From NCBI RefSeq assembly GCF_988242995.1, contig NZ_OZ547043.1: 64,000 nucleotides of DNA. One strand, 5' to 3'. The position numbers were made by a program, and so were the translations under genes. The notes under the pieces were generated by a model that did no database searches, had not been told where the DNA came from, and worked only from the letters and a program-made list of their open reading frames with translations. Each line of letters begins with the position of its first letter. Within the stretch, counting starts at the first letter, position 1. Shown here piece by piece: positions 30,418 to 31,971 of this stretch.

Positions 30418-31971
30418 ATGAAAATTAAAATACTTGCTGCGGGTATCGCATTAACATTGCCGTTCTGGGCTTGCGCCAAAGATGTCACCATCATTTATAC
30501 CAACGACCTCCATGCGCATGTCGAGCCTTATAAAGTGCCGTGGATCGCTGACGGTAAACGGGATATTGGCGGCTGGGCAAATATCACTACGCTGGTTAAG
30601 CAAGAAAAAGCAAAAAATAAAGCGACATGGTTTTTTGATGCGGGTGATTATTCTACCGGTCCCTATATCAGCAGCCTGACCAAAGGTAAGGCTATTATCG
30701 ATATTATGAATACTATGCCGTTTGATGCCGTCACGATAGGCAACCATGAATTTGACCACGGCTGGGACAACACATTATTACAGTTGAGTCAGGCAAAACT
30801 CCCTATTGTGCAGGGCAATGTTTTTTATCAGAACAGCAGTAAATCATTCTGGGATAAGCCATATACCATCATCGAAAAAGACGGCGTGAAAATAGGCGTT
30901 ATAGGTTTGCACGGTGTATTTGCCTTTAATGACACGGTATCTGCGGCAACGCGAGTGGGGATTGAAGCGCGTGATGAAATTAAATGGCTACAACGTTATA
31001 TCGATGAACTTAAAGGCAAGGTTGATTTGACCGTCGCCCTGATCCATGAAGGTGTTCCGGCCCGCCAGTCCAGTATGGGAGGCACAGATGTGCGTCGCGC
31101 GCTGGATAAAGATATTCAGACGGCAAGTCAGGTGAAAGGGCTGGATATTTTGATCACCGGACATGCGCATGTGGGTACGCCGGAACCGATTAAAGTCGGC
31201 AATACGCTCATCCTCTCCACTGACAGCGGCGGGATTGATGTGGGCAAACTGGTTCTCGACTACAAAGAGAAGCCGCATGATTTTACGGTGAAAAACTTCG
31301 AGCTTAAAACCATTTACGCCGACGAGTGGAAGCCCGATCCGCAAACAAAACAGGTGATCGACGGCTGGAATAAAAAGCTTGATGAAGTGGTGCAACAAAC
31401 GGTCGCGAAATCGCCGGTTGAATTAAAACGTGCCTATGGTGAATCGGCTTCCCTCGGGAACCTGGCGGCTGATGCTTTACTGGTAGCGGCGGGTAAAAAC
31501 ACCCAATTGGCGTTAACCAACTCTGGCGGCATTCGCAATGAGATCCCCGCAGGGGCGATTACGATGGGCGGCGTCATCAGTACCTTCCCGTTTCCCAACG
31601 AACTGGTGACGATGGATCTCACGGGTAAACAATTACGCAGTTTGATGGAACACGGCGCAAGTTTAAGTAATGGCGTTTTACAGGTATCGAAAGGCCTGGA
31701 AATGAAGTACGACAGCAGTAAGCCGGTTGGTCAGCGGGTAATCACGCTGACTCTGAATGGCAAACCCATTGAAGATGCGACGATTTACCACATTGCTACT
31801 CAGAGTTTCCTTGCTGATGGTGGAGATGGTTTTAGCGCCTTTACCGAAGGGAAAGCGCGTAACACAACGGGCGGTTATTACGTTTATCACGCCGTGGTTG
31901 ATTACTTCAAAGCGGGTAACACCATCACGGATGAACAGATCAACGGTATGCGCGTGAAAGATATCAAGTAA
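30418..31971 (+). CDS. Secreted bifunctional metallophosphoesterase / 5'-nucleotidase-family protein (UshA/CpdB/NadN-like, 517 aa); not part of the K-12 gene order
   Basis: Signal peptide [20 protein letters not shown]|KD; calcineurin-like motifs [26 protein letters not shown]; 5'-nucleotidase C-terminal signatures NSGGIR and FPFPNELV; strong SD AAGGGA. Confidence 0.85.

Follow-up and report, generated by a model that had tools for sequence, protein, structure and literature searches.

A predicted periplasmic 5'-nucleotidase and its divergent zinc-ribbon partner, a conserved gene pair at the metL-metF locus of Escherichia coli and other Enterobacterales

Introduction

The closest described relative of the enzyme analysed here is a protein that has already been crystallised. 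PDB entries 3IVD and 3IVE, deposited under the name 'Nucleotidase', hold essentially the same protein: it aligns end to end with residues 19-517 of ours at about 97% identity (E = 0 for 3IVD, far beyond chance) and differs by about a dozen substitutions. We take the two entries to be structural-genomics depositions of c4898 from E. coli CFT073 with a bound nucleoside. Our literature search found no paper that characterises this structure or its activity, and no enzymatic, expression or binding data for the nucleotidase or for the partner gene described below.

The same 517-aa nucleotidase appears as 'ORF 431' of GR 31 (metL..metF) in the APEC strain BEN2908, a region for which nucleotide/nucleoside processing was proposed in silico in 2026 (PMC12928451). 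The passages of that paper on GR 31 place the expanded island in the extraintestinal and adherent-invasive strains compared there, including BEN2908, UTI89, RS218, LF82 and NRG857c. The chromosomal site, the 517-aa nucleotidase and the proposed role are all the same as in our locus, but GR 31 is a 7.8-kb version of five genes, with Tsx and two more nucleotidases, while ours is a 3.0-kb version of two. The counterpart of the 3IVD and 3IVE protein is likewise the 517-aa gene in the expanded island, whereas our strain has the two-gene version only. Those same passages of PMC12928451 do not mention the 374/376-aa partner, the CRP site or the distribution beyond E. coli, and the pairing with a partner gene and the conserved CRP site look undescribed.

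Among characterised or solved proteins, the highest-scoring relatives are YfkN of B. subtilis, the 5'-nucleotidase of Thermus thermophilus (2Z1A, E 1e-43) and eukaryotic CD73 (E about 1e-31). YfkN, to which the GR 31 passages give the nucleotidase about 28% identity (PMC12928451), is a fused trifunctional enzyme, whereas ours is a single module, and in comparison with this group as a whole it has no cell-wall or GPI anchor. With UshA of K-12 it has in common the two-domain fold, export, the metal ligands, the catalytic dyad, the pair of base-clamping phenylalanines and the equivalents of R410, N431 and D504.

Here we analyse the nucleotidase gene within a 64-kb window, the stretch of 64,000 nucleotides of contig NZ_OZ547043.1 in which it lies. 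We think it likely that the gene encodes a catalytically competent, Sec-exported periplasmic 5'-nucleotidase of the UshA/CD73 superfamily that serves CRP-activated scavenging, that the gene beside it encodes a probable transposase-derived regulator, and that the two are an old pair at metL-metF.

Results

The nucleotidase gene and its partner occupy a segment between metL and metF with a GC content of 43-52%, against 54-61% in metL. The main features of the locus are:

29193..32202, no strand: 3.0-kb segment between metL and metF, missing in K-12, which has about 197 bp instead (empty-site alignment)
29155..30285, minus strand: divergent partner gene, a 376-aa 'cytoplasmic protein' with two Cys4 zinc ribbons and a predicted RNase H-like domain of DDE-transposase type
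30418..31971, plus strand: secreted metallophosphoesterase of the 5'-nucleotidase family, 517 aa, ATG start, orthologue of the 3IVD/3IVE protein
30418..30477, plus strand: signal peptide, residues 1-20, with predicted SPase I cleavage at ACA↓KD, read from the sequence
32028..32057, no strand: GC-rich hairpin with 13-nt arms, 3' of the nucleotidase stop (inverted-repeat search), possibly a REP-like element or a terminator

The nucleotidase is half of a conserved two-gene module. Its partner adjoins it in 29 loci, which are all the enterobacterial orthologues of at least about 70% identity bar three, and these three unpaired exceptions belong to a 539-aa paralogue type found inside multi-nucleotidase clusters. 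The partner is under purifying selection, and profile searches place an InsA-like zinc ribbon at its N-terminus; searches of Pfam, PHROGs, PADLOC and PDB sequences returned the zinc ribbon only, and no transposase Pfam domain was found. With an alignment of 17 close homologues AF2 gave a model too poor to use (pLDDT 46); a confident one required a 57-sequence alignment from an exhaustive profile search. That model suggests an RNase H-like, transposase-type fold and catalytic core. Across the 57 members, the candidate acidic positions 144, 201 and 247 are acidic in 42, 49 and 57 sequences respectively, and the near-invariant His, Glu and Arg residues include H228, H246 and E247.

The partner nevertheless differs from DDE transposases and integrases (the ISCth4/Mutator, TnsB and retroviral integrase cores) and from IS1 InsA in several ways. 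It has no detectable similarity to transposase Pfam domains or to InsB (hhalign of the family against IS1 InsB was negative), no terminal inverted repeats were found around the pair, the gene is syntenic and present in single copy, and its putative triad is not invariant. The family is, moreover, consistently linked to nucleotide and nucleoside genes: some remote homologues adjoin nupC-deoC-deoA, nupC with a phosphorylase, or other 5'-nucleotidases, and others adjoin an AphA-like phosphatase, a class II phosphodiesterase and a porin. We regard the partner as a candidate domesticated transposase and regulator. A broader proposal, which we offer tentatively and would not be surprised to see fail, is that it defines a hitherto undescribed family of DDE-type transposases that have been domesticated in the Enterobacterales, Vibrionales and Alteromonadales; its members would be dedicated, probably nucleoside- or nucleotide-responsive, transcription factors acting with CRP on periplasmic nucleotide hydrolases (the window 5'-nucleotidase, AphA-like phosphatases and class II phosphodiesterases) and on nupC/deo uptake operons.

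The partner might instead be a cytoplasmic enzyme of nucleotide salvage, either an RNase H-like nuclease or a hydrolase using the invariant H228, H246 and E247. The modelled fold and the near-invariant residues would suit such an enzyme, as would the operon-like arrangement in Plesiomonas, Enterovibrio and a Photobacterium-like contig, where the partner comes immediately after the nucleotidase in the same orientation. In most Enterobacterales, however, the two genes diverge from an intergenic region of conserved length with conserved palindromes, and the InsA-type zinc ribbons, like the faint HTH matches in longer members, are modules of a DNA-binding type, and we judge an enzymatic partner unlikely. 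The HTH matches fall in an insert of about 50-100 aa that is present in the longer relatives and missing from the short enterobacterial partners, so that in the latter DNA binding would have to come from the zinc ribbons alone.

The region between the two start codons is 132 bp long in the window and of conserved length across most Enterobacterales. It contains:

30293..30314, no strand: palindrome CAACGA-N10-TCGTTG just upstream of the partner start codon, a candidate operator
30343..30358, no strand: CRP-type core TGTGAttactcTCACA in the divergent promoter region, its centre 67.5 bp upstream of the nucleotidase ATG
30368..30408, no strand: inverted repeat CTTTCAG-N27-CTGAAAG, read from the sequence and conserved in the orthologue alignment
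30379..30384, plus strand: -10-like hexamer TAATGT (TAAnGT in orthologues), from alignment conservation

The CRP core (TGTGA-N6-TCACA) is the sole match in the 64-kb window, where 0.04 would be expected. Of 30 orthologous intergenic regions, counting the window's, 20 have the core without mismatch and nine have it with one; its position is identical in 24 of the 30, and the spacer varies while the half-sites are kept. Searching about 200 kb of orthologous loci for TGTGA-N6-TCACA returned almost nothing but these intergenic sites. The promoter scan found no canonical sigma-70 promoter. The distance from TAATGT to the core would fit a class II promoter (-41.5), a geometry that, like a transcription start near 30391-30392, we infer from sequence. 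The hexamer is bracketed by the CTTTCAG/CTGAAAG repeat, whose distal arm overlaps the nucleotidase Shine-Dalgarno sequence. In the palindrome next to the partner gene, the arms are conserved and the loop is variable. Its interpretation as an RNA hairpin was unsupported, the structure being not unusually stable (z = -0.22), and an Rfam search of 29000-32400 gave zero matches.

The nucleotidase ORF itself is intact, with the metal ligands, the His-Asp dyad and the base-clamp residues all in place. Residues 24-252 match Metallophos (PF00149, E 1.2e-11) and residues 335-477 match 5_nucleotid_C (PF02872, E 2.2e-38). The first-pass annotation had read the product as a secreted, two-domain calcineurin-like 5'-nucleotidase, and these domains, the PDB match and the predicted signal peptide bear this out. 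Among the dimetal motifs that it listed, the DxH, GNHE and GHxH equivalents stand as D30-L-H32, as G108-N109-H110-E111 (followed by F-D113) and as G248-H249-A-H251; a literal GDxxD does not, since the translation has D74-A-G-D77 continuing as G76-D77-Y-S-T, with the bridging Asp only. H210 completes the N-domain set. The C-terminal substrate-binding motifs that it named can be read in the translation as N368-S-G-G-I-R373 and F390-P-F392-P-N394-E-L-V.

Aligned with UshA, the metal ligands D41, H43, D84, N116, H217, H252 and Q254 correspond to D30, H32, D77, N109, H210, H249 and H251, and the catalytic dyad H117-D120 to H110-D113. These equivalents are invariant in 101 of 101 family sequences, including the His that takes the place of Q254. 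R410, F429, N431, F498 and D504 of UshA correspond to R373, F392, N394, F464 and D470; four of these are the same in every one of the 101 sequences, and the fifth, the N431 equivalent, is Asn in 100 of them. The two enzymes differ at Q254 and at the pair R375/R379, the phosphate-binding residues of UshA, which has no aligned Arg in the nucleotidase; R338-A-Y-G-E-S stands there instead, with R338 invariant in the family. Since the pair is not kept, the substrate range may differ from that of UshA.

The N-terminus follows the pattern of a signal peptide, with a positive n-region (MKIK), a hydrophobic core of 13 residues and ACA↓KD, with Ala at -3 and -1; the alignment with the PDB chain starts at residue 19. 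The A↓(K/Q/R)D junction is kept in orthologues (WASA↓KD in Enterobacter, VFA↓QD in Cronobacter, ALA↓KD in Vibrio), in agreement with the AXA cleavage site first proposed. Anchoring as a lipoprotein through Cys19 was considered and rejected: this residue is Ser or absent in orthologues, and cleavage by SPase I is favoured because the junction is conserved and Cys19 is not. We predict that the protein, which has no lipobox, is exported to the periplasm by the Sec/SPase I route.

The enzyme had also been described as neither UshA nor CpdB, and the comparison agrees. Identity is 24% to K-12 UshA, with 149.9 bits against the UshA equivalog NF007109 (cut-off 600), and 22% to CpdB, with 97.5 and 98.2 bits against NF006938 and TIGR01390 (cut-offs 486 and 883). 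With identities this low and scores below the cut-offs, the protein is not a duplicate of ushA or cpdB, and with every UshA metal ligand and dyad residue conserved, it does not show the loss of ligands that would mark a pseudoenzyme. NadN (TIGR01530), SoxB (TIGR04486) and YfkN (NF006934) gave 133, 150 and 184 bits, all far below their cut-offs of 436, 550 and 1646, and the top match is to the 5'-nucleotidase half of YfkN. By its two-domain architecture, the protein is a member of the UshA/CD73-type 5'-nucleotidase superfamily. A sulfur-related role (SoxB-like or on sulfo-nucleotides) was prompted by the SoxB match and by arylsulfotransferase and sulfatase neighbours in some loci; it was set aside because the SoxB score is far below its cut-off and because the E. 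coli and Citrobacter loci have no such neighbours.

Within this superfamily, the enzyme could be chiefly a pyrophosphatase of UDP-sugars, NAD or dinucleotides, like UshA or NadN, and not a monophosphatase. The fold is the same, and RefSeq gives some homologues the name 'bifunctional UDP-sugar hydrolase/5'-nucleotidase'; those names are automatic, however, the UshA and NadN scores fall far short of their equivalog cut-offs, and the R375/R379 pair is missing, so that we consider a pyrophosphatase improbable. It could also act mainly like CpdB, as a 2',3'-cyclic nucleotide phosphodiesterase and 3'-nucleotidase on RNA breakdown products. JGI names some homologues '2',3'-cyclic-nucleotide 2'-phosphodiesterase (5'-nucleotidase family)', and the GHAH motif with H251 is that of CpdB, where UshA has GHSQ. 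Yet the CpdB profiles match the N-terminal metallophosphatase domain alone, CpdB is absent among the best profile matches, which are led by YfkN, and the C-domain retains the base clamp and the Arg, Asn and Asp residues of UshA and CD73, which leaves a CpdB-like activity highly improbable.

The first-pass annotation had called the gene accessory, and its distribution confirms this: 1837 of 5426 complete E. coli genomes (about 34%) have it, at one copy per genome (median 1 place), and neither K-12 nor the O157:H7 strain G5295 does. In 659 genomes the metL-metF site holds three nucleotidase paralogues and a Tsx channel (493 bits, cut-off 311), and such multi-nucleotidase clusters with Tsx recur in Enterobacter, Citrobacter and E. 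albertii. In Providencia, genes for an MFS transporter and a nucleoside phosphorylase come after the nucleotidase gene. The Tsx and paralogue clusters, the Providencia neighbours and the in-silico reading in the GR 31 passages (PMC12928451) speak for a role in scavenging. The nucleotidase-partner pair occurs in commensal and environmental Enterobacterales (Citrobacter, Kosakonia, Phytobacter and Kluyvera), its metL-metF position is common to at least seven genera, and in Enterobacter and Cronobacter it stands in other chromosomal contexts.

This distribution bears on whether the nucleotidase serves mainly in host interaction, producing immunosuppressive adenosine in the manner of AdsA, S5nA and Nt5e of Gram-positive pathogens. 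Such a function would explain its presence in extraintestinal lineages, and the expanded island of the extraintestinal and adherent-invasive model strains covered by the GR 31 passages (PMC12928451) and a match of 144 bits to the Nt5e profile would be in keeping with it. The protein is, however, predicted to be periplasmic and to have no surface anchor, many commensal and environmental species carry the pair, and the putative CRP control and the linkage to Tsx, NupC and deo point to nutrition; we give a host-directed role very little credence. We conclude that the gene pair was probably present at metL-metF in ancestral enterobacteria and lost by K-12-like lineages, and not newly inserted. That it is a mobile element, with the partner an active transposase and the nucleotidase its passenger, is scarcely credible despite the partner's InsA-like zinc ribbon and modelled transposase fold, the low GC of the segment and the differing contexts in Enterobacter and Cronobacter, because no terminal inverted repeats were found around the pair, and single copy number, a position held in common by so many genera, a putative first catalytic acidic residue that is acidic in 42 of 57 members only and the lack of InsB similarity or a transposase Pfam domain also speak against it.

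Discussion

In the scavenging pathway that we favour, and by analogy with the family, the N-domain would hold a two-metal centre formed by D30, H32, D77, N109, H210, H249 and H251 and served by the H110-D113 dyad. The C-domain would clamp the nucleobase between F392 and F464, with R373, N394, D470 and R338, which is invariant in the family, binding the ribose and phosphate. Closure of the domains would then carry the phosphate to the metal centre, where nucleoside and phosphate would be set free. The nucleoside would in turn be imported and catabolised. Expression probably proceeds from a class II promoter dependent on CRP-cAMP, so that a shortage of preferred carbon sources would switch on production of the enzyme, and the divergent 376-aa partner is probably its specific regulator. 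In other E. coli the module appears to have been expanded by two more nucleotidase paralogues and a nucleoside channel of the Tsx family.

The enzyme itself adds little to what was known. It is annotated in RefSeq, its structure has been solved and it has been discussed in silico; being already annotated and solved, it is an ordinary member of its family, a third periplasmic nucleotidase that only some E. coli strains possess. Of wider interest is a CRP-linked module for nucleotide scavenging that the K-12 reference lacks but a third of E. coli strains and many other Enterobacterales carry, and that extraintestinal pathogenic lineages have in an expanded form.

The partner family, with roughly 300 clusters, is the lead worth following, as relatives of this transposase-fold, zinc-ribbon protein across the gamma-proteobacteria also flank genes of nucleotide and nucleoside utilisation. 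A regulatory partner would give bacteria a clear example of a transposase taken over to control the transcription of one pathway, and it would fill a gap in the control of nucleotide scavenging beyond CytR and DeoR. Should its origin as a domesticated transposase hold true, the family would be a bacterial counterpart of transposase-derived regulators of eukaryotes such as FHY3/FAR1.

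The nucleotidase and its predicted export

The first-pass annotation had called a secreted phosphoesterase here, and its reading of both architecture and conserved residues is supported: an open reading frame of the expected form lies at this position, beside a divergently transcribed partner.

26759..29191, metL, upstream neighbour of the nucleotidase/partner pair
29155..30285 (-), partner gene, 376 aa, annotated 'cytoplasmic protein'
30418..31971 (+), nucleotidase, 517 aa, ATG start
32353..33243, metF, downstream neighbour of the nucleotidase, with katG further downstream

By Pfam, nucleotidase residues 24-252 form a calcineurin-like phosphoesterase domain, and residues 335-477 match the 5'-nucleotidase C-terminal domain (E 2.2e-38). 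All the motifs previously listed are present except 'GDxxD', which really reads D74-A-G-D77-Y-S-T. The N-terminus looks like a signal peptide, with the proposed ACA-type junction predicted to be cut before KD. Because the A|[K/Q/R]D junction is kept in orthologues (Enterobacter WASA|KD, Cronobacter VFA|QD, Vibrio ALA|KD) while Cys19 is not, the sequence argues for a soluble periplasmic protein cleaved by signal peptidase I, not a lipoprotein.

The protein is a known, annotated and crystallised member of a known family. RefSeq names it 'bifunctional metallophosphatase/5'-nucleotidase', and residues 19-517 match PDB 3IVD/3IVE ('Nucleotidase') at ~97% identity, entries which we take to be structural-genomics structures of CFT073 c4898 with bound nucleoside. 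No biochemical study of it was found in the literature searched. A recent article (PMC12928451, PLoS One 2026) describes 'GR 31, metL..metF' in BEN2908 and the other extraintestinal and adherent-invasive model strains compared there. By its account the region has three UshA-domain ORFs sharing ~28% identity with YfkN, and a Tsx-like channel; a role in processing nucleotides and nucleosides is proposed purely from in-silico analysis.

Relation to UshA and CpdB

That the enzyme is neither UshA nor CpdB, as first suggested, holds: compared with the K-12 sequences it is 24% identical to UshA and 22% to CpdB, so that it is not a duplicate of either. No model reaches its curated NCBIfam cut-off, the scores being 184 bits for the 5'-nucleotidase half of YfkN (cut-off 1646), 150 for SoxB (550), 150 for UshA (600), 133 for NadN (436) and, over the N-terminal domain only, 98 for CpdB (486).

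When the nucleotidase and 100 family sequences were aligned with UshA, all the UshA metal ligands and the catalytic dyad were found to have identical or equivalent, family-invariant residues (ligands D30, H32, D77, N109, H210, H249 and H251, the last standing where UshA has Q254; dyad H110-D113), and the protein is thus no pseudoenzyme by its metal-ligand residues. Also conserved are the base-clamp pair F392 and F464, R373, N394 and D470. UshA R375/R379, its phosphate-binding pair, have no aligned Arg in the family, which carries an invariant R338-A-Y-G-E-S motif instead, and specificity on the phosphate side may therefore differ from that of UshA.

A transposase-like partner

When one genome per species was scanned, the partner lay divergently beside the nucleotidase at 29 of 77 loci, in most of them 132-138 bp away. 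These comprise all enterobacterial nucleotidase orthologues of at least ~70% identity, bar three of the 539-aa paralogue type, which lie inside multi-nucleotidase clusters; beside relatives of 60% identity or less (Bacteroidota, Acidobacteriota, SAR86) the partner is absent. Eight conserved Cys form two zinc ribbons weakly similar to IS1 InsA, and no Pfam domain was found in the C-terminal ~250 aa. The gene is under purifying selection (dN/dS 0.09-0.18). An exhaustive profile search gave 305 representative clusters from Enterobacterales, Vibrionales and Alteromonadales, all named hypothetical or 'transposase-like' (further members at comparison loci L005 4731-5870, L007 4583-5851, L010 4442-5845 and L092-L100); no description of the family was found in the literature searched. 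The family has an RNase H-like, transposase-type fold. Its candidate acidic triad is not invariant (of 57 members, 42 are acidic at position 144, 49 at 201 and all 57 at 247), and the gene is single-copy, syntenic and free of terminal repeats; taken together, it looks like a domesticated transposase.

The 3' ends of the partner and metL overlap convergently by 37 bp (29155-29191), and the partner coding sequence contains, just past the metL stop codon, a hairpin with arms of 27 nt (29206-29264). Between the window and an E. coli locus with an expanded island (partner at L006 3053-4177), dS is 1.18 for the partner (75% amino-acid identity) but 0.17 for the nucleotidase beside it and 0.12 for metL. 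The far greater divergence of the partner suggests recombination, or replacement of an allele, within the module.

Every remote family member sampled (19-30% identity) flanks nucleotide or nucleoside genes.

Neighbours of remote partner homologues
Agarivorans: divergent from nupC-like, deoC and deoA genes
Contigs L095 and L096: divergent from a nupC-like gene, L095 also with a nucleoside phosphorylase
Photobacterium-like contig, Plesiomonas and Enterovibrio: directly downstream of a 5'-nucleotidase
Salmonella (serovar Give): divergent from a porin, class B acid phosphatase and class II phosphodiesterase

The last cluster, with its partner-family gene, occurs in some Salmonella serovars (L099/L100). 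On this guilt by association we propose the partner as a candidate pathway-specific regulator; the main alternative is an enzymatic rather than a regulatory role.

The intergenic region

The 132-bp divergent region holds three phylogenetic footprints, compared here across 30 orthologous regions including that of the window.

30286-30417, divergent partner/nucleotidase intergenic region
30293-30314, palindrome CAACGA-N10-TCGTTG, conserved candidate operator
30343-30358, CRP core TGTGAttactcTCACA
30368-30408, inverted repeat CTTTCAG-N27-CTGAAAG, conserved candidate operator surrounding the -10-like hexamer
30379-30384, conserved -10-like TAAnGT (TAATGT in the window)

The CRP core is the only one of its kind in the 64-kb window (0.04 expected), and almost all such cores in ~200 kb of orthologous loci are these intergenic sites. 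Of the 30 regions, 20 have a perfect copy and 9 a copy with a single mismatch, with free variation in the 6-bp spacer; in 24 the core is centred 67.5 bp from the nucleotidase ATG. The spacing to TAAnGT would fit a class II (-41.5) CRP promoter; a scan found no canonical sigma-70 promoter, as expected if the promoter is, as presumed, activator-dependent. CRP-like cores also occur at 8 of 10 regulatory regions of distant partner-family contexts. As an RNA hairpin the palindrome is not unusually stable, and no Rfam matches were found in the region.

Distribution at metL-metF

Of 5426 complete E. coli genomes, 1837 carry the nucleotidase-bearing segment (coverage >=80%); K-12 and the listed O157:H7 strain G5295 lack it. 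In the window, 3.0 kb (29193-32202; GC 43-52% versus 54-61% in metL) stands in place of ~197 bp of K-12, and no terminal inverted repeats were found around the pair or this segment. A GC-rich, REP-like hairpin (32028-32057) follows the nucleotidase stop codon, and K-12 homology restarts at 32203, ~145 bp beyond the hairpin. Across 24346-38400 the metL/metF/katG flanks are only ~96.5% identical to K-12, and the best 15-kb match is chicken-faeces strain NY1601 (98.8%), which places the window in a rather divergent lineage of E. coli.

An expanded five-gene island (L006 1367-8557) is present in 659 of the 5426 genomes, leaving by subtraction roughly 1,180 with the two-gene version seen here. Its order is metL, Tsx-family channel, 539-aa nucleotidase, 516-aa nucleotidase, 374-aa partner gene, 517-aa nucleotidase, metF, the three nucleotidases being paralogous. 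Enterobacter asburiae, Citrobacter sp. wls619 and E. albertii carry similar clusters of several nucleotidases plus Tsx.

Because the metL-[pair]-metF order is shared with Citrobacter, Klebsiella, Kosakonia, Phytobacter, Superficieibacter and Kluyvera, the pair is probably ancestral there and was lost in K-12-like lineages. The pair lies elsewhere on the chromosome in Enterobacter, Pluralibacter and Cronobacter. Among Salmonella enterica subsp. enterica records (P0088, P0100) there are only truncated nucleotidase fragments of 333-368 aa, which match half the length at 90-93% identity and appear to be products of gene decay.

In Enterobacter, Pluralibacter, Cronobacter and Siccibacter an arylsulfotransferase gene (PF05935) adjoins that of the nucleotidase (arylsulfotransferase or sulfatase-type neighbours: L005 3043-4569, L007 7615-9141, L010 2700-4184 and 9898-11106, L017, L018, L040, L046, L059). 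The Providencia locus has a sulfatase gene close by, together with a radical-SAM/SPASM gene that may encode a sulfatase maturase. Such neighbours may have been kept by common descent of the gene order, or may point to a functional connection with sulfated compounds.

Function and significance

Alongside the directly observed architecture, conserved residues, distribution, linkage and conserved DNA elements, the most likely mechanism is that the nucleotidase, presumably exported to the periplasm and under CRP control, would hydrolyse 5'-nucleotides at its two-metal centre, scavenging carbon, nitrogen and phosphorus, with the partner as a candidate regulator. The main interest lies not in the enzyme but in a conserved transposase-fold partner family tied to nucleotide-scavenging genes.
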